Origin: an uncultured Holophagae bacterium
GTDB lineage: Bacteria > Acidobacteriota > Thermoanaerobaculia > Thermoanaerobaculales > Sulfomarinibacteraceae
Reading direction: 5' to 3'
NCBI GenBank assembly: GCA_963797055.1
Contig: CAWCOD010000005.1
Location: 189,995-253,994 of the forward strand
DNA: 64,000 bases
A program made the translations under genes and the position numbers. Below are positions 10,229 through 57,871 of the stretch, one piece after another. A model generated the notes under the pieces. The model worked only from the letters and a program-made list of their open reading frames with translations. It was not told the DNA's origin and did not search any database. The first letter of the stretch is position 1, and every line of letters begins with the position of its first letter.

Positions 10229-10723
10229 TTGGAGGGGTTTGTCGTGGCATATGGACGAATCGTGGTTGCCGCCGCACTACAGCGCTATCTGGACATGACG
10301 CCCATCGCGATTCGAATTCGTGATCTGGGTCGTGTGATCGCCGTCGCACACGGTGCGCCGATTCACCTGTTGTCGGTGGATGCGCCCGTCGACTTGCTTC
10401 CCGGCGTCGAGACCACTGCGGAGAAACTCGAGCGCTACGCTGACCCACTTCGCTCGCAAGGACTCGAGGTCGAAACCGAACTCCGGCAGGGGCGTCCGAG
10501 CCGTGCCATCGAGGAATACGTGCGTGATGTGGACGCCGATCTGCTCATCATGGGCAGTCACAGCAAGCGCGGTCCGATTGATGTCGGACTGGGAAGCACG
10601 GCCTCGGCGATTTCGCGCGAGCTGGCGGCAACGGTTCTTCTGGTTCGACCCACTGAGATCGAGCAGGAACAGGCCCAGGAGCTCATGATTCCCAAGTACC
10701 CGCTGGTCTTTCCCTATGGATAA
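10229..10723 (+). CDS. Universal stress protein family (UspA-like)
   Basis: C-terminal nucleotide-binding-like motif LLIMGSHSKRGPIDVGLGSTA..VLLVRP. The start could also be GTG 10244. Confidence 0.7.
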   Translation: MEGFVVAYGRIVVAAALQRYLDMTPIAIRIRDLGRVIAVAHGAPIHLLSVDAPVDLLPGVETTAEKLERYADPLRSQGLEVETELRQGRPSRAIEEYVRDVDADLLIMGSHSKRGPIDVGLGSTASAISRELAATVLLVRPTEIEQEQAQELMIPKYPLVFPYG

Positions 10724-16015: not shown

Positions 16016-17958
16016 CTACATCCCGAGCCGCTTCCGAGTCAGCGCCTCGAGCCCACCGGCCAGCACCAGATCCTGGGCGGCGGGGCCGAGGGGTGACAGT
16101 CGAAACTCCTCGCCACGCCAGGTGGCCACCGAGCTGCGAAAATCCACCGACAGATCGCCGGCAGGGATGGTCTTCGACCCGTCCTCCGCTTCCTTCTGAA
16201 ACGCCGTTCGGATCGCCTGTGACAGGGCCGGGCTCTCGAGGCAGATAAAGGCGTTGTTGAAGGCGTTCCGCAAGTAGGTTTGGGAAAAGCTGGCGGCGAT
16301 GACCATGCGAATGCCCCGGTACTTCAGCGCGGTGGCGGCCTGCTCGCGGGAGGAGCCGGTGCCGAAGTTGCGACCGGCGATGATGATGTCCCCGTCGTCG
16401 GCGATCTCTTGAAAGTCGGGATCGTAGTTGGCCATGGCGAACCCCGCCATCTGCTCCGGCGTGAGATCGTCCCGGTACGTCACATCCTTGCCGTAGACGC
16501 CGTCGGTGTTCAGGTTGTCCACGGGCAGCAACAGGGCGCGACCGTGCAGTTGTTCTGGAAATCCCTCGCGGATGTCGACAGATCGGGCGGGGGACGTCCA
16601 TCCGAGATCGGTGAAACTGTAATCGGGGACAGAGTCTCCGAGGTCAACCGGTCCGGTGATGCGTCCGGCGATGGCCGAGGCGGCCACAACCGCCGGGCTC
16701 GCCAGATAGGCCTTGGCGTCTCGGGAACCCATGCGGCCCTTGAAATTGCGGTTGGTAGCCGAAATGCCCACCTCGCCAGCTTCGAGAAGACCCACACCGA
16801 GTCCGATGCAGGCACCGCAGCCCGGCGGCAACGTCTTCGCCCCGGCATCCACGAGTGTCTGCCAAACACCCTTGGCCTCCGCCTCCCGCTGGACCTCCGC
16901 CGACGCGGCGGCGACATAGAGCTCGACGCCGTCGGCGACGCGGTGGCCGCGCAACACCTCTGCCGCCTCGAAGAGGTCGTCGAAGCGGGAGTTCACGCAG
17001 GACAACAAATAGGCCTTGTTCACCGCCACAGGCTCGGCGTCGAAGACGGCCACGGGGCGGGCTACCGCCACCGAGTCGGGACCCGCCACATGGGGCGAGA
17101 CCCGGCCGAGGTCGAGGTGGATCTCGGCGGCGTACTCGGCTCCGTCATCGGGCGTCGGTGGGTGCTCGTCCCAACCCGCGATGTGGTCGCGGGAGAGTCG
17201 CTCCGGGAAGCCCTTCGACGCCAGCCTCGCCTCCCGTTCGCGGAGGTACATGCAGTGACGTCGTCGTAGGGGAACCATCCCACAAGCGCACCCCATTCGG
17301 TGGTCATGTTGGCGACGGTCATTCGCTCAGAGATCGACAGCGTGCCGATCCCCGGGCCGTGGAACTCCACCGCGGCGTTGAGCACCTCTCCGGAGGAGTA
17401 GAGACTGCACAGGGTGATGATCACGTCCTTGCCCACCACACCGCCCCGTAGCCGCCCCTCGAGAACCACCTTCACCGACCGCGGGACCTGCCACCAGGTG
17501 GTGCCGGTGGCCCAGATCGCGGCGGCGTCGGTGCGCACGACCGGCGTGCCCACGGCCGCCAGCGCGCCGTACATGTTGGAATGGGAGTCCGAGGCCACCA
17601 CCAAGCTACCTGGGTGAACGAAGCCATTCTCCACCATCAGTTGGTGCCCGATTCCGGCTCCCGCCGGGTGAAAGACGATGCCCTGATCGCGGGCAAAGGC
17701 CTCGATGGCACCGTACTTGGCGAGGTTGGCGTCGGTGGTGTCCTGGACGTTGTGGTCCAGGGCGAAGATGGGCTGGGCGGGATCCGCCACCCGGACGGCG
17801 CCGATGGCCCTGAACTTGGGCAGGATGGCACCGGTGTTGTCGTGGGTCATCACATGGAATGGACGGATGGTGACCATGTCGCCGGCGCGGACCTCCTGCC
17901 CGGGTGTCAGATCGACCGCGTGGGACTGAGCGATTTTTTCGGTGATGGTCTGCGGCAT
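16016..17958 (-). CDS. Aconitase-family dehydratase, fused large+small subunit (homoaconitase / 3-isopropylmalate dehydratase-like); frame break near 17250
   Basis: ORF 17062..17958 (ASDSHSNMYGALAAVG, MTTEWGALVGWFPYDDVT) continues as ..YLREREARLA.. in ORF 16016..17296 (CGACIGLG, ATNRNFKGRMG, swivel-domain GRNFGTGSSREQAA). The span of 1943 nt is not a multiple of 3. Confidence 0.8.
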
Positions 17959-24084: not shown

Positions 24085-25296
24085 TCAGTCTCCGGCGCCC
24101 GGTGGGAGCGCCACCTCGTCCCATGACTGAGTGTCGCTGGTGGACATGATCTCGGTGGCTTCCACCGCGCTGCGCACGAGGGCCTCCACATCCAGCGCCT
24201 GCTCGGCCCTCGCCAATTCGTCGGCCCTCGACTTCGTGGCCGGGTTGTCGGGCATCAGAAAGGAGCAGCAATCCTGGTGGGGTTCGATGGAGATGTCGAA
24301 GGTGCCAATAGCGCGAGCCCGCGAGATGATCTCCTGTTTGTCGAAGCCGATCAGTGGTCTCAGAACCGGCATGTCGGTCACCGCCTCCACAGCCGCCAGA
24401 TTTTCGATGGTCTGGGAGGCCACTTGACCAAGCGCCTCACCGGTCACCAGGGCGCGGCTGCCGAATCTACGGCTCAGAACCTCTGCGATGCGGAGCATGA
24501 AACGGCGGTAGAGGAGTACGCGGTACTCCTCCGGGCAACGCGCAACGATCAGCTCCTGAATGGACACCAACGGCACCGACGCGATTCGCGCGGAGTGCTG
24601 GTACCGATTGAGGATCCAGATCATCCGGTGGACCTTCTCGATGCTGGCCGGGTTGGTCCTCGGCACCGAATGGAAGTGGATGAAGTCGAGCCGCATTCCC
24701 CGTCTGAGCATGGCCCACGCGGCCACCGGTGAGTCGATACCGCCGGACAGCAGACTGGCGGCGCGACCGCCAACCCCCACCGGCAACCCACCGGGCCCCG
24801 GCACGCCACGGGTCCAGAGATAGAGCCCCCTGTCATCCACCAGGATGCTCACTGTTAGCCCCGGTCTGCGCAGATTCACCGGCCACCCGGTGCGCTGCTG
24901 GACAAAGGTGCCGATCTCGCGCTCGACCTCGGGTGACGTCAACGGGAATCGTTTGTTCGACCTGGTGCATCGGACCGCGAAGGTATCCGTTTCCAAAGAT
25001 TCGAGTCTGGGGCTCAGGGCCTTCTTGAGATCGTCAAGGGTGTGGCCGGTAAACTGGACAGGTCGAATGGACTTCAGTCCGAAAACAGTCACAAGCCGCC
25101 GAGCAGCGTCCTCGAAGATCACTTCTTCGGAAAAGGTAATCAGCACTCGCCAGGCCGGACGTTGGATCGCCTCGACCGGCAGATCGGCCAGTGCGGTCCG
25201 GATGTTGTCGGTGAGCTGCCGCTCGAACCACGGGCGGTTACCGCCCTTGAGGCTGATCTCGTTGGTACTGGCGAGGATCATGGTCACCCGGTCCAT
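24085..25296 (-). CDS. thiI: tRNA 4-thiouridine synthase ThiI
   Basis: NEISLKGGNR N-terminus, THUMP region, PP-loop SGGIDSPVAAW. I chose ATG 25296 because upstream ORF-track codons translate repeats (ICNLQSAICNL). Confidence 0.85.
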   Translation of the reverse strand: MDRVTMILASTNEISLKGGNRPWFERQLTDNIRTALADLPVEAIQRPAWRVLITFSEEVIFEDAARRLVTVFGLKSIRPVQFTGHTLDDLKKALSPRLESLETDTFAVRCTRSNKRFPLTSPEVEREIGTFVQQRTGWPVNLRRPGLTVSILVDDRGLYLWTRGVPGPGGLPVGVGGRAASLLSGGIDSPVAAWAMLRRGMRLDFIHFHSVPRTNPASIEKVHRMIWILNRYQHSARIASVPLVSIQELIVARCPEEYRVLLYRRFMLRIAEVLSRRFGSRALVTGEALGQVASQTIENLAAVEAVTDMPVLRPLIGFDKQEIISRARAIGTFDISIEPHQDCCSFLMPDNPATKSRADELARAEQALDVEALVRSAVEATEIMSTSDTQSWDEVALPPGAGD

Positions 25297-38896: not shown

Positions 38897-40049
38897 ATGG
38901 CACCCAAAGGCACCCATGTCTTCACCTCGGAATCGGTCACCGAGGGTCATCCGGACAAGATCGCGGATCAGATTTCGGACGCTGTCCTGGATGCGGTTCT
39001 CACTGATGATCCCAACGGCCGAGTGGCCTGTGAGACCCTGGTGACCACGGGTCTGGCCTTCATTGCCGGCGAGATCAGTACCACAACCTATGTTGATTTT
39101 CCGGCTCTGGTACGGGAGACCATTCGCGAGATCGGATACACCCGCGCGAAGTTCGGATTCGATTCTGAAACCTGCGCCGTGATCTCGTCTATCGATCCTC
39201 AGTCACCGGACATCGCGCTGGGTGTGAACACCGGCGGTGCCGGCGACCAGGGTCTGATGTTCGGTTACGCCACCAACGAGACCGACGAGTTGATGCCGAT
39301 GCCGGTGATGCTCGCCCACAAGCTCACCATGCGGCTCTCCGAGGCCCGAAGACAGGGCACCATCGACTGGCTGCGTCCGGACGGCAAGAGCCAGGTTTCG
39401 GTGGAGTACGAAGGGCCAATGCCCCGCCGCATCGAGGCGATCGTGATTTCGTGCCAGCACGCCGACGAAGTGGAGACCGATGAGCTCCGGGCAGTGGTGC
39501 GAGAGGAGATCATCGACAAGGTATTGCCCCAGGAATTGATCGATGAGGCAACCAAGATCTACATCAACCCAACCGGGAGATTCGTGATCGGGGGACCCCA
39601 GGGTGACTGCGGTCTGACCGGGCGCAAGATCATCGTCGATACCTACGGTGGTGTGGGCTCCCACGGCGGTGGCGCATTCTCCGGCAAGGACCCCTCGAAG
39701 GTCGATCGTTCGGCCTCGTACATGGCGCGGCATGTGGCGAAGAACATCGTCGCGGCCGAGCTTGCGGATCGGGTGGAGGTTCAACTCGCCTACGCCATCG
39801 GCGTGGTGGATCCGGTTTCCGTGATGGTCGACTCCTTCGGCACCGGGCGGGTTGCGGATGAGACGATCACCAAGGCCGTCCGTGAGGTATTCCCGCTGTC
39901 GCCCGAACGGCATCATCGAGGACCTCGATCTCCTGCGGCCGATCTTCAAGAAGACGGCGGCGTTTGGACACTTCGGCCGGATGGACCCGGATTTTACGTG
40001 GGAACGGACCCATCGGGTCGCTGACTTGCGGTCCGCCAGCGGCGTTTGA
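38897..40049 (+). CDS. metK: S-adenosylmethionine synthetase; frame break near 39903
   Basis: [47 protein letters not shown]. After ..VREVFPLSP the conserved tail [25 protein letters not shown] lies in ORF 39852..40049. The span of 1153 nt is 3n+1. Confidence 0.88.
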
Positions 40050-40086: not shown

Positions 40087-41440
40087 ATGGTCTCCAGGGT
40101 GCTCGGCGAACCGGGTTCGCTGCAGCGTCAGTATTCGCTTGCCACTGCCTTGTTCGCGGTGATGGTGCTGGCGATCATTTTGCTCTACGGTCATTTCATC
40201 GCGCAGTCATTATCCCGGAGGTACCTGGAGGACGTGTTGATCACCGGCCGCGAGGAGGCGGAACGGATCGCTGATGACCTGGGTGGCGAAAGCGCCACCG
40301 AGCTTCTCGATGTGGTGGAACGGCGGCGAGAGATTCTCAGGCGAACCCTCGAGGGTCTTCCCCAGCGGGAAATCTACGAGACCGTAGAGGTTCGCGATGC
40401 CAACGGCGAGGTCAGGTACTCGTCTCAGTTCCGCGCCACCGAGGACCTTCCCGACGAAGTCGCCACCGACTTCGAACTCGGTGGGACGTTGTCGGACCAG
40501 GAGGTCACCGAAACCGAGAACAGCTATCAGTTGGTGGTTCCACTCGGCGACGTCGGGGAGGTGGTGGTCAGCGTCTCGAAGGCGCGGGTGGCAGAGCGGG
40601 TCGGCCGCCTGCGCACCGAACTCCTGTCCCGAACCGTGGCGGCCGCCGTTCTGACGGTTTTGACGCTGGTGGTGGCTTTTGTGTTGGTGTGGCATCTGAT
40701 CCAGAGGACCAGACGGCTCGAAGTCAGAAACCGCGAGGCGCAGGAACTTGCCGCGTTAGGGACCCTTGCCGCCAACCTGGCCCATGAAATCCGAAATCCC
40801 CTGAACTCCATCAATCTGAATCTCGAGTTGCTCGAGGAGGATGTGGAGGGTCAGGTTGACGGAATTGCCGCGTCTTTGGCGACGACCCGTCGCGAGGTTG
40901 GCCGGCTGGCCCGACTGGTGAGCGACTTTCTCTCCTATGCGCGACCCTCCGAACTCGATCTGGAGGAGGTTCGCGTGATCGCGGTCTTCGAAGAAGTCCT
41001 CGCATTCCTGCGCGCGGAGGCGGCCAGCCTGGGTGTTCATCTCCGGCTCGCTCCGGATATGTGAAGATGACACCATAGTGACCGATGACGGGCAGCTTCG
41101 CCAGGTTCTGCTCAACCTCGTTCTCAACGCCGTCCAGGCGGTGGCGGGGCTGGAAGCGGACCGGAGAGTGGTGGAATTGAAATCGGTTCGAACACAATCG
41201 GGATGGATCGACCTGGTAGTGCGTGACCGGGGTGACGGGGTGCCCGAGGAGGAGTCTGCCACGGGTGCGGGCCGCGTTCTACACACGCGACGCGGAGGCA
41301 CGGGCCTGGGTCTGGCCATCGCAGAACGATTTGTGACCTCCCAGGGGGGGCGAATCGACCTGGTGAACCTGGAACCGTGTGGCTTCGAAGCCCGGGTCGT
41401 CTTGCCGGACGACCCGCGCGATGTCAAGATGAGCGAGTGA
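40087..41440 (+). CDS. Sensor histidine kinase; frame break near 41060
   Basis: N-terminal TM, H-box LAANLAHEIRNPLNSI in ORF 39964..41064. The HATPase_c part (QLRQVLLNLVLNAVQA, GGTGLGLAIA) lies in ORF 41033..41440. Confidence 0.8.
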
Positions 41441-49126: not shown

Positions 49127-49405
49127 ATGGGCCAGTACATGGGGGGATCGGCACCCGCGATGGCGAGGCAGATCTGTGACGGATACATTCTACTGTCGCC
49201 GGTCATCCTGAAGCGCTTGGACGTCAGTCAGATGGAACAGCTGCAATTCGAGATGGACAAACGTCTCCGCGAGACCCGCGGCGAGGCGATGGACCTCGAG
49301 GACCAGGAGGGGTTGCAGCAGCGAAATCGGAGGCTCTCCCGAATCGAAGGCGGGCTGCGTACCCTCCGCCACGCGATGCAGCAGAAGCGCATGGGCCGTC
49401 TGTGA
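49127..49405 (+). CDS. Small hypothetical protein (coiled-coil-like)
   Basis: 92-aa ORF. Its stop overlaps the next gene's GTG (GTGA), which suggests translational coupling. Confidence 0.45.
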   Translation: MGQYMGGSAPAMARQICDGYILLSPVILKRLDVSQMEQLQFEMDKRLRETRGEAMDLEDQEGLQQRNRRLSRIEGGLRTLRHAMQQKRMGRL

Positions 49406-50295
49406 TTCGGCCCTCCAGCTGCGGCAGCGGCTGGGAGGCGCTTCGCGGAGACCCCCTGCCTTGGCTGTTGGATGAGCATCGACCGAACCTCCACTGGCGG
49501 GTTCTCGTGGAGCTGGTTGGCCGGCCGGTGGACAGCCCGGCGGTGCGTCGAGCCCGGGGAGGTGCCAGCGCGGCGCAGCCCGTGGCAACCCTTCTCGAGG
49601 ATCTCCAGCCCGACGGAACGTGGGCGACGGCCATCAGCCCATGGCGACGTTACGGTGGTCCGGGATGGCGGTTTGTCACCGCCGTCTCCTGGGGTGCCGA
49701 CCCGACCGATCCCAGGCTCGGGACCGCGGCACAGAGGTTTCTGGAGGAGTCATCGGGCGAGGGGGGATTCTCGACCAGCCAAGGCCGGCAACCGTCACCA
49801 TTGGTGACAGCTCGTTTTGTGCAGGCTCTGGCGGCGATCGGATTCGGCCATCACCTCAGGGTCCAGGAAGCGCTGGCCTGGTTCGAGGAGGAGTCTTCGG
49901 CGTGGCCGGAGCGCGGGTCTGTTCGGGCGGTGGTGGCTGCTGCGCTGCTCGAGGCCGTGGCCACGATCGAGCCGCGGCGTCGCCGCCTGCAGCGGCGTCT
50001 CCTCGACGCTCTGGAGTCCGCGGTTCGGGGCCACGGCAGGGCATTCTCTTCACTGGGATTCCCGAACCTAGGCCGGACCGATTTGGGAGAGATATTCGCT
50101 GCGCTGGCCCTCGGCGGGACGCCCTATGCGCGATGGATGGAGGCGCCGCTGACGCGTTTGCAGCGGCTCCAGCAGGACGGTGGACGTTGGCCCCGAAACC
50201 ACCCGCGCCCGGTCTCGCTGCCGATCCCGGCCGCGTGCCGAGGACACCGTGGTGATCTCTGCCGATGGCTCACGTTCGAGCCGTGGTCGCCATGA
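49402..50295 (+). CDS. Hypothetical protein, possibly alpha/alpha-toroid (prenyltransferase/terpene-cyclase-like repeats)
   Basis: Recurring LQPDGTWA / GEGGFS / QQDGGRWP segments resemble the DGGW-type repeats of that fold. The functional call is weak. Confidence 0.45.
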   Translation: MIRPSSCGSGWEALRGDPLPWLLDEHRPNLHWRVLVELVGRPVDSPAVRRARGGASAAQPVATLLEDLQPDGTWATAISPWRRYGGPGWRFVTAVSWGADPTDPRLGTAAQRFLEESSGEGGFSTSQGRQPSPLVTARFVQALAAIGFGHHLRVQEALAWFEEESSAWPERGSVRAVVAAALLEAVATIEPRRRRLQRRLLDALESAVRGHGRAFSSLGFPNLGRTDLGEIFAALALGGTPYARWMEAPLTRLQRLQQDGGRWPRNHPRPVSLPIPAACRGHRGDLCRWLTFEPWSP

Positions 50296-50420
50296 ATTCC
50301 TATGCCGCAGACGCCGGGCTGCCCAGGTTCTTCCCACAGAAACCGGAATAGGGTCTGAGGCTGGAAGTTACGAGTTTGACGTTAAACGTTAGGTTCATCC
50401 GGGATTCCGTGAGATGGACA

Positions 50421-50592
50421 GTGGTTGAATTCGGAATTTGAAGACCCCGCCCACCCGGAGCGTGAGGGCGCGATAGGCGGGTGTGCCACTTTTGACATTG
50501 TTCGGGTCCTCATCGCTGAAAAATCTGAGACTGGGGTCCGAACAATGTCAAGGGTGGCAACCTCGGGAAGCGCGTGGGGAAAATCGGCGCGA
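50421..50592 (+). repeat. Composite intergenic element, copy A3
   Basis: gttgaattcggaatttgaaga; core 50446-50592 with stem ttgacattgttcggg (50492-50506) / ccgaacaatgtcaa (50538-50551). Confidence 0.85.
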
Positions 50593-50654
50593 CGGCGCTG
50601 TGCAGTGGATTCAGTCGCGAACCTGAAAGTACTTGGAGGACCTGCGGAAAGCAT

Positions 50655-51618
50655 TTAGTGCCGGGAGGGCTCGACGTCAAGGGGTAGTTGCGGGTCGGGT
50701 CCAGAAACCGTGGTGGTGATCCTCAGGATGGCGCCGATCAGGAGCGCAGCGCCCACCCACTGCCACCCGCCGAGCACCGAGCCGTTGATGAGGTAGTCGA
50801 AGACTACGGCCGACAGCGGAAGACAGAGTTCGCAGATTGCGGCCACGCTGGCCTTGACCCGGGTGAGCCCGTAGTAATACAGAAAGAGGGCCCCGCTGCC
50901 GGTGGTCAGCGAAATCACCAGGACAATCATCCATTCTTTTGGCGTGACCTCTGCGAAGGGCAGACCCGCGCCGCTGACGAGGGTATAGCCGAGGGCCATC
51001 ACCGCGGTCATGCCGTAGCGGCCGAAGGTGGCATCCTTGAAGTCGAGCGATCCGAGCAGCTGCTTGCCAAAGACGGTGGCCGAACCGAAGGCCGCCGCTG
51101 CGATCAGGGCCAGGGTTGCCGCCGTGACTGTGCCGTCGCCGGCTGTCACGTCGGGCAGCGCAAGCCCGAAGGCCAGCAGGTAGGCTCCACCGAACGCGAC
51201 GGCGGCCCAGCCGAGGAAACGCCAGGTGTGATCCGTTCCCTCAAAAGCACCGCCGCGAGTGAAATCGCGAACAGTGGCTGCAGCTTCTGCAACAGAACCA
51301 CAACGCTGAGCTGGTCGAAGTTCACCAGGAAGAGCGCTTTGACGATGGCCAGGGTGCCCACCAGGCCACCGGTGAGGGAGACCAACGCGAGGACCCACCA
51401 TCCTCGCCGCTCCATTGCGCCCTGAGGGCCCGCCAGCTTCGTCTCATGAGCGGCAGCATGATGGCGAAGGGCACTGCGTGCAGAAGGAAAACCACGAACG
51501 GGACCGGCAGGCTGATGGAGCCGCGGGGTCAAGACAACCCCGTCGAGACCCCAGGCGATGGCGGACAGACAGATCAGCAGTCCGCCCAGGGTTTGGAACG
51601 GTTGGTTGGCTGTGTCAA
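50655..51618 (-). pseudogene. EamA/DMT-family transporter disrupted by about four frame breaks
   Basis: Family-like TM segments sit in three frames: (TTG 51618) MTQPTNRSKP / LGGLLICLSAIAWGLDGVVLTPRL / SISLPVPFVVFLLHAVPFAIMLPLM / RRGWWVLALVSLTGGLVGTLAIVKALF..LLRERIT / WRFLGWAAVAFGGAYLL...GLTRVKASVAAICELCLPLSAVV. Breaks fall near 51590, 51500, 51415 and 51228. Confidence 0.65.
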
Positions 51619-51637
51619 CGGCAGAGGCCCCGCCGGC

Positions 51638-52487
51638 TCACAGCTCGACGCCAAGGGGGCCCTTCAGTGCCACCGCGATCACCATGGTGAGCAGGAAAAA
51701 GACCACCATCCAGGCGTAGGAGTTCCGGACGCTCCAGCCGCCCAGTGAGACCGTGCCCTCGGGGTACCCCAGGTTGATTTCCTTGATCGAGGTGTCGGTA
51801 GCCAGCGGTGCCTCGGATGGCCATTCCAGCTGGCCGAAAAATGGACCGGTCGGGACGGGTGGGGGAGAGACGAACGATGGAGTCGGTGACCGTCAGTGTC
51901 TTGCCGATGACTTCTTCGCCGAGGTGAAACTCGAGCTCGTAGTCGCCCCAGTTCTCGGCGGCGATTTGCCAACTGAACTCGCCCAGCTCCGGAACCCAGA
52001 CCGCTGGAGTGATGGCGTGCAGGCCATCCGGCAGTTCGAGCTTCAACGGGCGGACGTTCACCGTCCCAACGGTCGCGCCAGTCGGAGTCCATGACCGTCG
52101 TCAACATGGCCTCGCCCCCAGGTTCGATGCCGCTGAATCCGTAGAAGCTGTGGAGCTGGACCATGACCAGCACCAGCGGAGGCAGGATGAAAATCATGGG
52201 AATCAGGGCCAGACCCTGGTAGTGCACCACGTGACGGAGGATTTCACCCTGGGCCCTGATGATCGCCCGGATGTCGTCGTTGAAGAGCCTGATCTCGAAC
52301 AGGCAAGCGTGGATCTTGGACTTGACCGCCGAGATCCGTTCCTGGTTCGAGGTCTTTTTGAAGACCCAGAGGGCGAACAGGGACACGGGTATCGACCAGA
52401 CCACGATTCCCACCAGCGCCGGCAGCCCGCGAAGGGCGCCTGGAGCAGGTCGAAGATGGGACGAAGCAGCGAGTTGATGGTGGACAT
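51638..52487 (-). pseudogene. Membrane protein of unknown family disrupted by about three frame breaks
   Basis: ATG 52487 MSTINSLLRPIFDLLQAPFA / LPALVGIVVWSIPVSLFALWVFKKTS..IRLFNDDIRAIIRAQGEIL..IPMIFILPPLVLVMVQL / NVRPLKLELPDGLHAITPAVWVPELGEFSW..TVTDSIVRLSP / PVPTGPFFGQLEW..GGWSVRNSYAWMVVFFLLTMVIAVALKGPLGVEL, stop at 51638-51640. Breaks fall near 52425, 52075 and 51860. Confidence 0.55.
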
Positions 52488-52496
52488 CAGACCGCT

Positions 52497-52692
52497 CTAC
52501 GACATATAGTCCGAGGCCCTTGAGCCGTTTCTTGATCTCTTCCTCGTCCTCCGCATCCTCGAGCAGGGCGAGCTCTTTTTCGAGGGCGTGCGTGATGAAC
52601 TCCTCGGGCGAGGAGTAGCCGGCGATCTCGGCGTACTTCCGGATCCGATCGACGATGGATTTTTCGAGTTTGACCTTGGTGTATGAAAACAT
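52497..52692 (-). CDS. Small ribbon-helix-helix-like (Arc/MetJ/CopG-like) protein; frame break 4 codons before the likely stop
   Basis: MFSYTKVKLEKSIVDRIRKYAEIAGYSSPEEFITHALEKELALLEDAEDEEEIKKRLKGLG. Skipping one base near 52510 gives ..GLGYMS-stop (TAG 52499-52497). As given, the ORF reads through into the next gene. Confidence 0.5.
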
Positions 52693-52803
52693 CTCAGATT
52701 CCTCTCGTTGTCACGATGTCGCCCCGGTGGCGGGCGCGGGCCGTGGTCTGCCGTGGCCCATGTTCCTTTCGTGTTGTACATGCCGTCTCCCACACTCCGG
52801 TGT

Positions 52804-54925
52804 TCACGCCGCTCCTTTGAACCGGTTGATATCGAAGATCGGGCGGCCGTCCATGTGGGGGGCGGGCGCCACTCCGAACAGAGTCAGCGCCGTCGGCGCG
52901 AGATCCACGATGTGGGGGTCCTCGGCGTCGATGGGATGGCTCGACAACACGATGCCCGGCACGATCCGCGGGTCCACGATATGGTCGCCGCTCCACGCCT
53001 TGACGTTGTCCTCGAAGACCGGACCGGCGACCACGCCGGCCGCGCAGCCCCAGGAGATGCGGTAGCCGTGGTTGTATCCGATGAGCAGGTCGGGTGCGTT
53101 GCCCTTGTACGGACCCCGGTAGAGGGTGTCGGTGTCCCAGATCTGGTTGATGGCCACCGTCTCCTCCTCCGCGTCCATCGACCCACTCAGTTTGGAGATC
53201 AGCTCCTGCTTCAGCGCGGCGGCCTCCTCGCCCGGTTGGACGATCCCGTGGTTCTCGCGACCGGCGAGGTTGAGGAAGATCCCGACCAGGCCAACCGCAT
53301 AGGCTCGGGTCTTGGACCAGTCCACCGACTGCAGCCACTCCTCCGACCCGTCGGCTCCCTCCTTGAGGGTGAGATAACCCTCTGAGAGGAGCCAGGCGTT
53401 GAGGTTGACGCCCCGACGGAACGAGGTGCAGCCGTGGTCCGACAGCACCACCAGGACATCATCGTCGCCAAGCCGGTCCATGACCCGACCGACGATGGCG
53501 TCGTTCTTGCGGTACTGGTCCTCGATGGCATACCGGTACTCCGGGTTGTCGACGCCGCGAGCCGCCGGGTGGCCGTCCTCACGATACCGCCAGTACATAT
53601 GGTTGACCCGATCGGCAGCGTCGAAGACGGTCACCATGGCGCCCGAGCGCAGCCGGTCCAGCGCGGCATGGAACATCTTCTCCCGCTCGCCGTCGATGTC
53701 CGACGTCTGGGTCCAGAAGGTCCGGTCGTCGGTGATCTTCTCATTGAGGGCCCACGTGTCCTCGGCCAGCCCGAGAGTCGCGTAGGGGCCGAGCTTCTTA
53801 CTCAGGTAGGACGAGTAGTAGGAGGGATGGGAAATCGGCATTGCCGGTTTTTCGGGCTGGATGTTGATGGGAGAGACATAGAGTGAGACATGTTCGTCCA
53901 TCTCGGTGATCATGATGACGGCAGATGCCGTTAACCTTGATCTTGGCGATGGCGGGGAACTCGAGGGTCACCCAGTCGCTGAGTTCGCCGGTCTCAAGCT
54001 CGAGTCTCCTCGCCACCCGCAGTCACCTTGGCGCGACCCGCCGTTCGGTCGAGTTCCATGGCGAGTGGCAGCTCCATGGAGGGACTGGCGTCCAGAAACG
54101 AGTTCTCCGGACCTTGGATGGTGCCGCTGAAGCGATCGGCGCCGTCCGGCGTCAGATCGAATCGCAGGCCGCCCTCCTGGAAGGCGGCTGGTATCCGGCC
54201 GGGTGGTGAAGAACAGGAAGGTGCCCTGGGTCCCGAGCAGGTCGGGGATGCACATGGCGCCGAGCTGGGCGCCGTAGAACTTGTCGGGAGGAAAGGTAAT
54301 CGGCACCCGGATGATGGTGCTCCAGATGTTGTGCTCGCCGAGGATCGTCCACCACGGCTTGGATTTCCTGAGCAGCCGGATGTCGGGCTTGGACAGCGGG
54401 ATCCGCAGCTTGCCGATCTTCAACGTCCGATCAACCGATCCGATATGGGCCGAAGACAGCCGCGGCAGATAGGTTCGGGGATCGCGGTCGAGAAAGTCGA
54501 AGATGTTGTGGCGTCCGGGGTTTGTGCCGGTGGAGAAACTCGACCAGGCCACCGGTGTCAGCGAGGGATAGGTGGTGCGCAGCCTCCGATACCCGCCTTT
54601 GGCGGCCAGCTTCGAGAAGTTGGGCAGCTCGCCGGCCGCCATCATGCTCTCGGTGATGGCGGCATCCTGACCGTCGAAACCGACAAAGATCAGCCGTTTG
54701 ACGAGGGGTTTGCTCTTGCGACGATGGCGGATCATCCGCCACAGGGTGCGAAAGGGCCACGCCAGCAAGGCGAATCCGGCCACCAACGTCGTGCCGAACA
54801 GCACTGCAAAGGAGCCGAGCACGGCGAAACCCGCGCCCGGGCCGATGTAGGCCTCGGCCGGCGATGGCCAGGACGCCAGTGCCGCCAACGCCAGCCGACG
54901 CCACGACGGCGCGTTCTGTGACCAT
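52804..54925 (-). pseudogene. Alkaline phosphatase superfamily protein (type I phosphodiesterase/nucleotide pyrophosphatase family) with a membrane N-terminus, disrupted by 3-4 frame breaks
   Basis: Pieces in successive frames: AYIGPGAGFAVLGSFAVLF..LIFVGFDGQDA..TTYPSLTPVAWSSFSTGTNPGRHNIFDF..GTQGTFLFFTTRP / PAAFQEGGLRFDLTPDGADRFSGTIQGPENSF / LELETGELSDWVTLEFPAIAKIKVNGICR / MITEMDEHVSLYVSPINIQPEKPAMPISHP..VLVVLSDHGCTSF. Breaks fall near 54200, 54010 and 53915, and possibly 54895. Confidence 0.7.
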
Positions 54926-55182
54926 GTTTGATTTCGCTCTCCACCCGTTTCCCTCCGGCGTGTTGACCGTGCGAGTGGGTGTCCAGCGACCCCATCCTCG
55001 GACGTCTCATATTTAACCGTATGGCGGCTCTGAGATTTCCTTCTGCCACGACAGCTGGCCGCCGGCCGTGTAGTATATGGATCGGCCGCCGAGCATGGCA
55101 AGGCGGCTCGTTCATACTCGAGTCCGTAACTGTCGGGAACAAGAAGATTTCAAGCCGCCCGAACGCGGGTTCCCGAACGGAG

Positions 55183-55814
55183 ATGAACAGGATGTCGATT
55201 TTTTCGGATGTGTTGCGGCGATTGAAGTATGGCCGGCCGGTGGTCGTGGTCTCGGGGCTGCCGAGATCAGGAACCTCCATGGCCATGAAGATGCTCGAGG
55301 CGGGTGGTCTCGATGTGGTGACCGACAAGGTCGGACCCCGGACGAGGACAACCCAAAGGGTTACTACGAGGACGAGAGGGTCAAGGACCTCGCTGAGATG
55401 GACGACAAGGAGTGGTTGCGGGATGCGCGGGGCAAGGTGATCAAGATCGTGTCCTTGTTGCTGCAGTACCTCCCCGACACCAACTTCTACAAGGTCGTCT
55501 TCATGCGGCGACATCTGCAAGAAGTGCTGGCCTCCCAGGCGAAAATGCTCGATCGGCGAGGGGAAGCGTCGGAGACCTCGGACGAAGAGATGCTGCAGAT
55601 GTACGGCGGCCACCTCGACAAGATCCAGTTCCAGCTGCGGTTCAGGGACTATTTCGACGTCTTGTACGTGGACTTCCGTGATGCCCTCGAGGACCCTGTG
55701 CGCGAGGCAAAGAGAATCAACAATTTCCTCGGGGGCGGTCTGGACGAGGGAAAGATGGTGGAGGTCGTGGATCCGGAGCTGTACCGCAATCGGATTGCCG
55801 AACTCAGTGAATAG
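55183..55814 (+). CDS. Sulfotransferase family protein; frame break near 55335
   Basis: PAPS-binding 5'-PSB loop VVVSGLPRSGTSMAMKML in ORF 54979..55440. It continues ..TPDEDNPKGYYEDERVKDL..KVVFMRRHLQEVLASQ in ORF 55077..55814. Confidence 0.7.
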
Positions 55815-55911
55815 TGAGTGGTGAATAGCGAATAGTGAATAGAAGTGGAGCGCTTGGTTGCCAAGAACGACTGCAGCTCGTAGACGCTGCAGACGATTCC
55901 TATTCACTATT
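55807..55911. repeat. gtgaata/gcgaata heptamer array, small hairpins, and inverted ctattcactatt
   Basis: gtgaatagtgagtggtgaatagcgaatagtgaatagaagtgg; cttgg-ttg-ccaag; ctgcag..ctgcag; ctattcactatt. Same unit type as 37547-37580. Confidence 0.75.
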
Positions 55912-56394
55912 TACATTCTCTTGATGAGTCCCTGGTAATCGCCAGGTGGCGGTGTGCTGGAAGATCAACCGGGTCTCGATGCGGTCCACCTCGCCTCGCG
56001 TTGTGAACGAGTCCAGCGCCAGATCGCGGAGGTGCTGGGTGTCGCGCACCGCAACGTGCACCAGGAAATCGTCCGCTCCGGCCACATGGTAGATCTGGAG
56101 CACCTCGGGGAGGGTCAGGACGTAGTCGATGAACGAGTCCACCAGGTCCCTCGAGTGTTCGGCCATGCGGACGCCGATCATGGCCTCGGTGGCCACCTCG
56201 AAGGCATCCAGATCGATATCGGCGTGAAAGCCGTGGATGATGTCCAGAGTGCGGAGTCTCCGGACCCTCTCGAGACAGGTGGAGGGTGCCAGCCCCACCA
56301 GTTCGGCGAGGGCCTTGTTGGAGATTCGCGCATTGGCGCGGAGGGCGGCCACGATGGCCACGTCAAAACGGTCGAGGTCGGTTCCGGAGCGCAT
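55900..56394 (-). CDS. Lrp/AsnC family transcriptional regulator
   Basis: LDRFDVAIVAALRANARISNKALAELVGLAPSTCLERVRRL (HTH) plus a C-terminal RAM-like domain. ATG 56394. Confidence 0.85.
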   Translation of the reverse strand: MRSGTDLDRFDVAIVAALRANARISNKALAELVGLAPSTCLERVRRLRTLDIIHGFHADIDLDAFEVATEAMIGVRMAEHSRDLVDSFIDYVLTLPEVLQIYHVAGADDFLVHVAVRDTQHLRDLALDSFTTRGEVDRIETRLIFQHTATWRLPGTHQENVNSE

Positions 56395-56440
56395 GGCCGA
56401 ATGATATTCGAATGAACATCCTAAAGTCCACCGATTGAGT

Positions 56441-56615
56441 GAGAAAATTCGAAAATCGAAATTTGAAATTCGAATGCCCGTTTTGGCCAAGGTTGTTTCA
56501 GCGCGCCCTTCTCCTCACCGCGCTACCCGAGGTTGCCCCTTGACAATGTCGGGACTCCAAGAGCCGGGCGACTCAGCCGTAGAGCCCCAACATTGTCAAA
56601 GAGGGCACGCCCGAT
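56441..56615 (-). repeat. Heptamer array plus composite element copy A7 (reverse orientation, lacks the C-box end)
   Basis: gagaaaattcgaaaatcgaaatttgaaattcgaat at 56441-56475. Stem ttgacaatgtcggg (56540-56553) / ccccaacattgtcaaa (56585-56600). Confidence 0.8.
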
Positions 56616-56671
56616 CATCGCGGCCAAACGCTCTGGATCGTTGGGGGCAATAACCCGATGGCCCCTAGGCC

Positions 56672-57871
56672 CTAGCTCCATCCGACGGGCTTCAGCGCCA
56701 GAGCATCGGCGTGGCGTGCGAGCGCTGTTCGTGCGGCCTCTCTGGTGGTCGGCGTGTCGGGTTCTTCTATGTGGAGGGACAGCACGTGGAGCCGTCCGGC
56801 CGCTCGGTCGGCCTTGAGGTCGAATCGGGCCACAAACTGATCGCCGGCGAGCACCGGCAGGCAGTAATAGCCGTAGATCCGTTGCTCAGCGGGTTTGAAG
56901 ATCTCCAGAACCTGGTGGAATCCGAACAGGGCTTCGACCCTCTGGCGGTCCCACAGGAGCGGGATCGAAGGGTGACAGCAGGATCCCCCGATCGCGCCGG
57001 GGACGGACGCGTTCCAGACGATCTGCCAGTTCCAGATCCTCGCCGCGAATCCAGCCGAGATGTTCCCGCCGTCCTCCGGCACCACCTTGCACTTCCGGAT
57101 GCGGCCCGACGCCTCCAGGGTCGCGAGCGCGTTTTTGATCTGCCCCTGACGCCGAGCTAGGCGCCAGGTTTGGGTCAGGGTGCCGGTGGTGGCCCATCCG
57201 TGGCCCTCGAGGGCCAATATCAGCAGGTTTTTGATGGCCTCCGACTCGGGCACCGGGTCGGAGCGCCAGCGCTCTGGAATCACCCGATCGGCGAGGTCGT
57301 AGGATCTCTGGAAGGAGCGGCGCTCTCGGATGGCGAGCTCGCCGGAGGACCACAGTGCGGTGGCGACCTTTTTTGCAACCTTGAGGTCCCACCAGCCTTG
57401 GCTCCCGCTCCCCTCCATGTCCACCGACCGCAGCGGCCCCTCGTCCCGGATACGCTTCACAAGCCTGTCCGCCACGCCTGGGTTCCGCCCGACGATGTCT
57501 CCCCACCATGGGTGGTGCCGAAACTCCCGCCTGCGAAAGTCAAAGATCGGGTAGAGATCCATGGGCAGCCAGCTCGCCTCGTGGCCCCAGTACTCGAAGA
57601 GCGGTTCGCCGGGACGGAGCAGCTCCTCGCCGAGTGCGGGGTCCATCCCGTCGATGCGCGACATCAGGACGATGGCGTGGCTGCGGGCCCCGGCCACCGA
57701 TACGGTGTCGAGCTGGAGGTAGCCGAAGCGTTCAATGACCCTCTGGGCCGCCGTTCTGGCGCGGGCGCCGCGACCGGCGGCCCTGACGGGCATCCCGGTC
57801 CACTCGGGTTTGAGCAGACCGCCCCGCGCCAGCGCCAGTCGCCGCGCCGCCCTGACCGACAGGGTGTCCAT
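56672..57871 (-). CDS. Winged-helix DNA glycosylase-like protein (YcaQ/AlkZ, DUF1006 family) with an out-of-frame internal segment
   Basis: FGYLQLDTVSVAGARSHAIVLMSR, LLWDRQRVEALFGF..IFKPAEQRIYGYYCLPVL..RFDLKADR. The conserved HLGWIRGEDLE..GILLSPFDP segment is readable only in the frame of ORF 56886..57509, between about 57060 and 56959. Confidence 0.75.
   Translation of the reverse strand: MDTLSVRAARRLALARGGLLKPEWTGMPVRAAGRGARARTAAQRVIERFGYLQLDTVSVAGARSHAIVLMSRIDGMDPALGEELLRPGEPLFEYWGHEASWLPMDLYPIFDFRRREFRHHPWWGDIVGRNPGVADRLVKRIRDEGPLRSVDMEGSGSQGWWDLKVAKKVATALWSSGELAIRERRSFQRSYDLADRVIPERWRSDPVPESEAIKNLLILALEGHGWATTGTLTQTWRLARRQGQIKNALATLEASGRIRKCKVVPEDGGNISAGFAARIWNWQIVWNASVPGAIGGSCCHPSIPLLWDRQRVEALFGFHQVLEIFKPAEQRIYGYYCLPVLAGDQFVARFDLKADRAAGRLHVLSLHIEEPDTPTTREAARTALARHADALALKPVGWS

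Follow-up and report, generated by a model that had tools for sequence, protein, structure and literature searches.

Our frameshift-aware alignment against intact orthologues from six relatives revealed 16 frame breaks in seven genes, and one further intergenic indel, between positions 50275 and 57064 of the window (the whole stretch of 64,000 nucleotides analysed here). The indels are present in the window's sequence, are unique to it and carry an indel-only signature. We conclude that they are very probably uncorrected consensus errors of a long-read-only metagenome assembly, concentrated in a locally poorly supported stretch of ~6.8 kb. According to this model, spurious insertions and deletions of 1–2 nt would have been left in the consensus of such an assembly where few reads, or co-existing strains that differ at this locus, gave poor support over ~6.8 kb, and the organism itself most likely carries all seven genes intact.

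Breaks were located with a custom protein-to-DNA aligner that permits frameshifts, with the L001 orthologues and the proteins called on Illumina contig L045 as references. The orthologues are intact in all six relatives, including the Illumina contigs L045, L046, L047, L049 and L085, and nucleotide alignments against these relatives show gaps in the coding sequences at the break positions, the exceptions being a few compensating gap pairs that have no reading-frame effect in the frameshift-aware alignments. Segmentation by codon usage and GC3 lends independent support, with the frame changing at the break sites, and frame correction raises Pfam scores, from 146 to 175 bits for the AlkZ-like protein and with two domains regained in the EamA transporter. 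All 17 events measure 1–2 nt, none is a multiple of three, and 12 are insertions; relative to L045, the broken genes contain no indels of 3n nucleotides and, once frame-corrected, no in-frame nonsense codons. The converse possibility, that the errors reside in the relatives, was rejected: the Illumina and Nanopore relatives are in agreement with one another, and it is only in the window that the ORFs are broken. By the same alignment, 12 flanking genes at 42.6–50.2 and 57.1–64 kb (Fer4, trpS, aroDE, gcdH, three unknowns, GFA, aldh, hom, metY and sat) are free of breaks, and the probability that 16 random events would all land in 6.8 of these 21.4 kb is ~4e-7.

A preliminary description of this DNA had reported about 15 breaks within 6.5 kb between clean flanks, and had called for an objective count by frameshift-aware protein-to-genome alignment and for a comparison with related genomes. 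Both analyses, as given above, bear out the cluster and the clean flanks, and each of the listed break positions was recovered to within ~35 nt. The cluster is slightly more extended than proposed, with one break 380 nt to the left of the original edge at 50655. A break assigned to the EamA gene at 51590 corresponds to a real indel that is intergenic instead, and a phosphodiesterase break at 54895, listed as possible, is real and consists of two +1 events. The Lrp/AsnC regulator within the block is intact.

Table 1. Genes, frame breaks and related features in the window.
Feature	Positions	Strand	Remarks
316-aa conserved unknown gene	49402–50345	+	−1 break vs both L001 and L045
Break in 316-aa gene, 50275	50273–50277	+	1-nt deletion (G lost from TGCG)
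Intergenic composite repeat	50346–50654	none	relatives have a 144-aa thioredoxin gene there
EamA-family transporter	50655–51589	−	309 aa in L045; three reading frames
EamA break, 51223	51219–51224	−	2-nt insertion; gap in L045, L047, L049, L085, L001
EamA break, 51423	51419–51424	−	2-nt insertion
EamA break, 51511	51510–51517	−	1-nt insertion
Intergenic indel, 51597	51596–51598	−	1-nt deletion (CCC to CC), just upstream of L045-called EamA start
282-aa conserved membrane protein	51638–52487	−	four frames; no Pfam family
Membrane-protein break, 51842	51839–51844	−	1-nt insertion (A before TTTTT, gene strand)
Membrane-protein break, 52044	52038–52050	−	1-nt insertion
Membrane-protein break, 52430	52425–52430	−	1-nt deletion
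64-aa putative ribbon-helix-helix (RHH) protein	52497–52692	−	label from preliminary description; no Pfam match
RHH break, ~52510	52508–52512	−	1-nt insertion (GGC TAC to GGA C TAT)
711-aa membrane-anchored AlkP-superfamily phosphodiesterase	52804–54944	−	PF01663; five +1 breaks
Phosphodiesterase break, 53917	53914–53917	−	1-nt insertion
Phosphodiesterase break, 54008	54000–54008	−	1-nt insertion
Phosphodiesterase break, 54186	54183–54188	−	1-nt insertion
Phosphodiesterase break, 54895	54892–54896	−	1-nt insertion, signal-peptide region
Phosphodiesterase break, 54911	54908–54912	−	1-nt insertion, signal-peptide region
207-aa sulfotransferase	55192–55814	+	in two pieces
Sulfotransferase break, 55330	55330–55332	+	1-nt deletion
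Lrp/AsnC regulator	55900–56394	−	within patch, intact
AlkZ/YcaQ-like DNA glycosylase	56672–57871	−	399-aa ORF
AlkZ break, 56963	56959–56963	−	1-nt insertion restoring frame
AlkZ break, 57064	57057–57067	−	1-nt deletion
Aconitase frameshift, ~17.27 kb	17250–17300	−	outside patch; split into two ORFs
metK frameshift, ~39.9 kb	39897–39907	+	outside patch; +1
Histidine kinase frameshift, 41062	41060–41064	+	outside patch; +1; HisKA and HATPase_c separated

The ORF of the 316-aa gene ends early, at 50295, because its final ~24 codons are out of frame. With a break four codons ahead of its stop, the putative RHH protein lacks the conserved C-terminus (...GLGYMS-stop), and its ORF extends into the next gene. 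The two AlkZ events form a compensating −1/+1 pair that keeps the ORF open, with ~33 codons between them read out of frame. Compensated frameshift pairs in functional genes resemble this arrangement, in which the two events lie 100 nt apart; unlike such pairs, however, the shifted segment displaces the conserved ...RGILLSPFDP... motif, the Pfam score drops, and the pair is found in no relative. The damage extends to housekeeping genes outside the patch, namely aconitase, in which Pfam positions 1–241 and 227–463 lie in different frames, metK, whose C-terminal domain departs from the frame for its final ~35 positions, and a histidine kinase.

What kind of process leaves such a signature? The same genes carry frameshifts at different positions in Microflora Danica MAGs built from long reads (20 breaks in L038, 12 in L025, 5 in L042, and 3 each in L041 and L031), and 38 of the 43 frameshifts in these sister genomes are +1 insertions without homopolymer association. 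Approximately 25 Illumina assemblies show no such breaks apart from two apparent ones at extreme C-termini (L039 and L014), which probably represent end divergence. The insertion-biased, non-homopolymer signature of the window matches that of the sister Nanopore-only MAGs. Several breaks had been thought to sit at short homopolymers, but the indel sites are not enriched for them, with runs of at least 3 nt found within 5 nt of 35% of the sites against a background of 37%. The long-read MAGs of Microflora Danica came from Flye assembly with a single round of Medaka as the only polishing, and their authors report Nanopore-associated errors at low coverage (PMC12313526); a near-finished Nanopore-only consensus requires roughly 40x coverage (PMC9262707). 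As in other Nanopore-only or unpolished long-read MAGs, the window has conserved genes fragmented by 1–2-nt indels, no accompanying substitution signal, and housekeeping genes among those affected (PMC9262707; PMC12313526; proovframe preprint 10.1101/2021.08.23.457338). Classic descriptions of Nanopore error stress homopolymers, whereas the sites in the window, like those in the sister MAGs, are non-homopolymeric.

A second difference concerns distribution. Errors in the sister MAGs are dispersed over whole loci, and long-read MAG errors usually occur along the contig, whereas those in the window are sharply local, concentrated ~30-fold in one 6.8-kb patch; an additional local cause is therefore required. 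We infer that the window derives from long-read, presumably Nanopore, sequencing and that this local cause was a coverage dip or a strain mixture. The thioredoxin gene missing from the window is a structural difference from the relatives located in the patch, and is compatible with a strain-variable spot. As a guess, each spurious base could be the other allele of a site that is polymorphic among strains, retained in the consensus: some insertions resemble two alleles (CCTGG versus CCC or CGT in relatives; CATC versus CTC or ATG), but the codons bearing indels are not significantly more variable among the relatives (13 of 16, against a 74% background). We also considered whether specific repeats bound the patch; the composite heptamer/GC-box repeat that flanks it is not patch-specific, because it is present in nearly every intergenic gap.

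It is conceivable, though in our view improbable, that the organism no longer needs this block, whose genes would then be real pseudogenes of very recent origin. Six adjacent genes are hit, five of them from one conserved cluster, the immediate flanks are clean, and the neighbouring thioredoxin gene is missing. Frameshifts in several neighbouring genes are likewise a feature of the pseudogene blocks in decaying bacterial genomes such as those of Mycobacterium leprae and host-restricted Salmonella. In contrast to those blocks, the window lacks nonsense mutations, larger deletions (no indel exceeds 2 nt) and elevated or relaxed substitutions, its genes are core in the clade, and its indels are biased towards insertion, whereas a deletional bias is typical of bacterial pseudogenes. 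The cluster encoding the Lrp regulator, sulfotransferase, AlkP-like phosphodiesterase, RHH protein, membrane protein and EamA transporter is kept across Thermoanaerobaculia/Holophagae, and the block is intact in ~25 Illumina MAGs or contigs, the close relatives among them. Since it is present in dozens of relatives, the block is not accessory. In addition, AlkZ and the 316-aa gene are affected although they are functionally unrelated to the cluster, and metK and aconitase are broken elsewhere in the window.

The substitution record points in the same direction. In a three-taxon comparison of the window, L001 and L045, counting changes unique to each lineage, window-unique amino-acid changes number 43 of 225 in the patch and 126 of 541 in the flanks, and window-unique nucleotide changes in the patch number 233 where 272 were expected. 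On the window lineage, changes at codon positions 1+2 relative to those at position 3 stand at 0.40 in the patch and 0.51 in the flanks, a ratio that shows no relaxation. These counts and this ratio indicate that purifying selection acted normally throughout the lineage, despite 16 frameshifts. Bacterial substitutions usually outnumber indels by roughly 10:1, a ratio at which decay would have brought ~150 extra substitutions; the observed excess is −39. We found no sequence of the same species in the genome collection, in a protein database searched with the frame-corrected phosphodiesterase or in JGI metagenomes; the best matches, at 93% amino-acid and 88% nucleotide identity, represent other species. 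Exact look-ups of four proteins of the window (the 369-aa phosphodiesterase fragment, metY, AlkZ and hom) likewise matched no record. Of the two alternatives offered in the preliminary description, the accessory block in decay thus finds no support, as its genes are conserved and none of the traces that decay should leave is present, while indel errors in a low-coverage or strain-heterogeneous stretch fit everything testable: the indel-only signature without excess substitutions or nonsense codons, the broken housekeeping genes and the match to the sister Nanopore MAGs.

Less probable still is that small indels truly arose in a localised burst within a single lineage, as the trace of an error-prone synthesis or repair tract, for instance during mutagenic break repair. 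Such an event would explain both the sharp clustering and the indel-only spectrum. We know of no bacterial process, however, that yields insertions outside homopolymers at ~2.4 per kb with no substitutions, and seven conserved genes would have been lost simultaneously; moreover, the occurrence of an identical signature in the sister long-read MAGs and its absence from Illumina MAGs implicate the method. Were the indels real, they would imply an undescribed, localised indel-mutagenic process, and nothing supports such a reading. Recoding, in which programmed ribosomal frameshifting or transcriptional slippage would restore the proteins, could draw on the return to frame of AlkZ through its −1/+1 pair and of the phosphodiesterase by way of three consecutive +1 events (54186–53917), but is effectively refuted by the absence of conservation of any site in any relative, and the sixteen sites mix +1, +2 and −1 changes without a shared slippery motif or homopolymer, while the out-of-frame stretches displace conserved residues, at a cost of 28 bits of Pfam score in AlkZ.

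With consensus errors as the preferred explanation, the finding serves mainly to flag a problem of sequence quality. Annotation would label seven genes in this stretch as pseudogenes or gene fragments, and neither the conserved sulfotransferase/phosphodiesterase/membrane-protein cluster, the AlkZ-type glycosylase nor the others among them should be scored as lost. In this clade, long-read-only MAGs bear insertion-biased, non-homopolymer indel errors that are sometimes sharply local, and a clean flank is therefore no guarantee for neighbouring genes.

Two other candidate breaks in the window, at 10721 and 24085, where an in-frame stop separates paired ORFs, proved to be ordinary gene boundaries. 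Further breaks may lie at ~1.37 and ~5.03 kb.

A purpose-built protein-to-DNA dynamic-programming aligner that permits frameshifts, applied gene by gene with proteins from L001 (a Microflora Danica MAG) and called proteins from L045 (an ENA contig), revealed 16 breaks within the coding sequences of a ~6.8-kb patch, on which both query sets agreed, and none in 12 flanking genes or in the Lrp gene inside the block (see table). If 16 random events were spread over the 21.4 kb tested, all would fall inside these 6.8 kb with P ~4e-7. The preliminary description had reported such a cluster between clean flanks and had proposed both a frameshift-aware count and a comparison with close relatives; all of its break positions were recovered, within ~35 nt. 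In nucleotide alignments with six relatives, gaps in coding sequence lie at the break sites, in the same places in each relative covering them, and the few remaining gaps form compensating pairs that leave the frame unchanged. Segmentation by GC3 and codon usage also switches frame at the break sites. Fragments in place of genes are already visible in the window's ORF list, with Pfam half-domains in neighboring ORFs, and frame correction raises the AlkZ-like Pfam score from 146.4 to 174.8 bits and restores two domains of EamA and the N-terminal part of the sulfotransferase.

Frame breaks and split genes in the window (sign and size of indel in nucleotides)
Feature	Position	Indel or observation
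316-aa unknown	50275	-1
EamA	51511, 51423, 51223	+1, +2, +2
Immediately upstream of EamA start	51597	1-nt deletion
282-aa membrane protein	52430, 52044, 51842	-1, +1, +1
64-aa protein labelled RHH	~52510	+1
Phosphodiesterase	54911, 54895, 54186, 54008, 53917	+1 each
Sulfotransferase	55330	-1
AlkZ	57064, 56963	-1, +1
Aconitase	~17.27 kb (17250-17300)	Pfam positions 1-241 and 227-463 in different frames
metK	~39.9 kb (39897-39907)	final ~35 positions of the domain shifted in frame
Histidine kinase	41062 (41060-41064)	HisKA parted from HATPase_c

The window DNA (63% G+C) has its nearest relatives among uncultured Holophagae/Thermoanaerobaculia (Acidobacteriota) MAGs, and no same-species sequence was found in the genome collection, the protein database or JGI metagenomes. 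Three relative sets are collinear with it at 79-88% nucleotide identity: the long-read L001 over 43.3-63.8 kb, the Illumina/MEGAHIT contigs L045 and L046 over 42.6-64 kb, and the JGI contigs L047, L049 and L085 over parts of the region. Every gene of the L045 region is intact, in the order sat, metY, hom, aldh, GFA, AlkZ, Lrp, sulfotransferase (divergent), phosphodiesterase, 64-aa protein (without a Pfam family), 282-aa membrane protein, EamA, thioredoxin, three unknowns, gcdH, aroDE and trpS.

What kind of change produced the patch? Of its 17 events, 12 are insertions, ten adding 1 nt and two adding 2 nt, and the other five each delete 1 nt; no event exceeds 2 nt or has a length divisible by three. 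The earlier impression that breaks sit at short homopolymers did not hold, as a run of at least 3 nt lies within 5 nt of 35% of sites and of 37% of random positions. Genuine pseudogenisation, the preliminary description's alternative of a decaying accessory block, is poorly supported and, in our view, improbable. Natural decay is expected to bring roughly ten substitutions per indel, judging by bacterial mutation spectra, together with a bias to deletions, indels of varied size and nonsense codons. The patch showed none of these marks, and no nonsense codon is left there after frame correction. Counting changes unique to each of three lineages (window, L001 and L045) at aligned codons, we found that 43 of the 225 unique amino-acid changes in the patch belong to the window, versus 126 of 541 in the flanks, and that the window has 233 unique nucleotide changes in the patch versus 272 expected from the flanks; in the window lineage, changes at the first two codon positions relative to the third have a ratio of 0.40 in the patch and 0.51 in the flanks. 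With L002 and L037 as outgroups, a comparable test likewise showed no significant excess. These counts and ratios show that the patch genes have been under normal purifying selection along the whole window lineage, despite 16 frameshifts. Moreover, the arrangement of Lrp, sulfotransferase, phosphodiesterase, RHH, membrane protein and EamA is intact in dozens of relatives and hence not accessory, and the breaks reach beyond this cluster into the unrelated AlkZ and 316-aa genes.

Applied to all 44 related loci, the aligner found multiple internal frameshifts in the cluster genes of Microflora Danica long-read MAGs only: 20 in L038, 12 in L025, five in L042, three each in L041 and L031, and one in L032, at positions different from those of the window. 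Some 25 Illumina assemblies had no internal breaks; two apparent ones, in L039 and L014, are at the very C-terminal end and probably reflect end divergence. As in the window's patch, the sister-MAG events are insertion-biased (38/43 events counted are +1) and are not enriched at homopolymers; unlike those of the patch, they are strewn over whole 21-kb loci. Their density reaches ~1.4 per kb in L038, and L001, L002, L013, L021, L023 and L037, which come from the same project, are essentially clean. For the Microflora Danica long-read MAGs, Nanopore reads were the sole input, with assembly by Flye and a single Medaka round, and their authors acknowledge Nanopore-associated errors at low coverage (PMC12313526); a near-finished Nanopore-only consensus is reported to need ~40-fold coverage (PMC9262707). 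With indel-only events, no substitution excess and a like signature in long-read sister MAGs, the other alternative of the preliminary description, a stretch of indel errors, gains support, and we conclude that the patch very probably consists of uncorrected long-read consensus indels, long-read sequencing being what we infer for the window itself. A real, localised burst of indels would match the clustering and is also poorly supported, being very unlikely beside the insertion-biased frameshifts of the sister MAGs. Recoding, in which programmed frameshifting or transcriptional slippage would restore the proteins, is scarcely credible, as none of the sites is conserved in any relative. For inferring the organism's gene content, the patch genes should be treated as intact.

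Because the errors form a patch and are not spread along the locus, consensus error calls for a local cause: read support may dip, or co-existing strains may differ across the stretch. One hint of such a cause is that L045, L046, L047, L049 and L001 encode a Zn-ribbon thioredoxin of 144 aa between EamA and the 316-aa gene; inside the patch, at 50346-50654, the window lacks this gene and carries only a 307-nt repeat element, one copy of the intergenic repeat. We speculate that several insertions retain both alleles of a polymorphism (window CCTGG versus CCC or CGT in relatives; CATC versus CTC or ATG), although variability among relatives is not significantly higher at the indel codons than in the background.

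Outside the patch, three genes are split (see table), and an intrinsic scan gave candidate extra breaks at ~1.37 and ~5.03 kb. Together these set a background of ~0.05-0.12 breaks per kb, versus 2.4 per kb in the patch. Among the candidates (~1370, ~5030, 41255/41286), one would lie at the N-terminus of a PAD_porph (agmatine deiminase-like) gene, and another would join two unknown ORFs. Single stops between same-frame ORFs at 10721-10723 (Usp/unknown) and 24085-24087 (ThiI/4Fe-4S ferredoxin) were rejected as readthrough or nonsense sites, Pfam indicating separate complete genes.

The conserved cluster (window 51638-56394; L001-L043) recurs in many MAGs of Thermoanaerobaculia/Holophagae and in some of Phycisphaerae and Gemmatimonadota. 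It comprises Lrp/AsnC, the divergent sulfotransferase, a 711-aa membrane-anchored AlkP-family phosphodiesterase, the 64-aa RHH-like protein (so labelled in the preliminary description), the 282-aa membrane protein, which has no Pfam family, and usually EamA. At 63.2-64 kb, 8 kb from the cluster, a fused ATP-sulfurylase/APS-kinase (PAPS supply) is encoded. The window carries a composite repeat, also present in L001, in almost all of its intergenic gaps (~0.5, 2.3, 8.2, 13.5, 18.0, 23.15-23.41, 25.3-25.5, 27.6, 30.1-30.3, 43.0, 44.1, 45.6-46.2, 50.37-50.62, 56.45-56.63, 57.9-58.26 and 58.85-59.2 kb). In this repeat, 3-6 tandem heptamers (ATTGCAG/ATTGCGA, AACGTTn or GAAATTC variants) adjoin G+C-rich boxes (CCGCCCACCCGGAG...GGCGGGCGTGCCACTTTTGACATTGTTCGGA) containing an inverted TTGACAATGTT/AACATTGTCAA pair; the repeat may represent a REP/MITE-like or a regulatory element.
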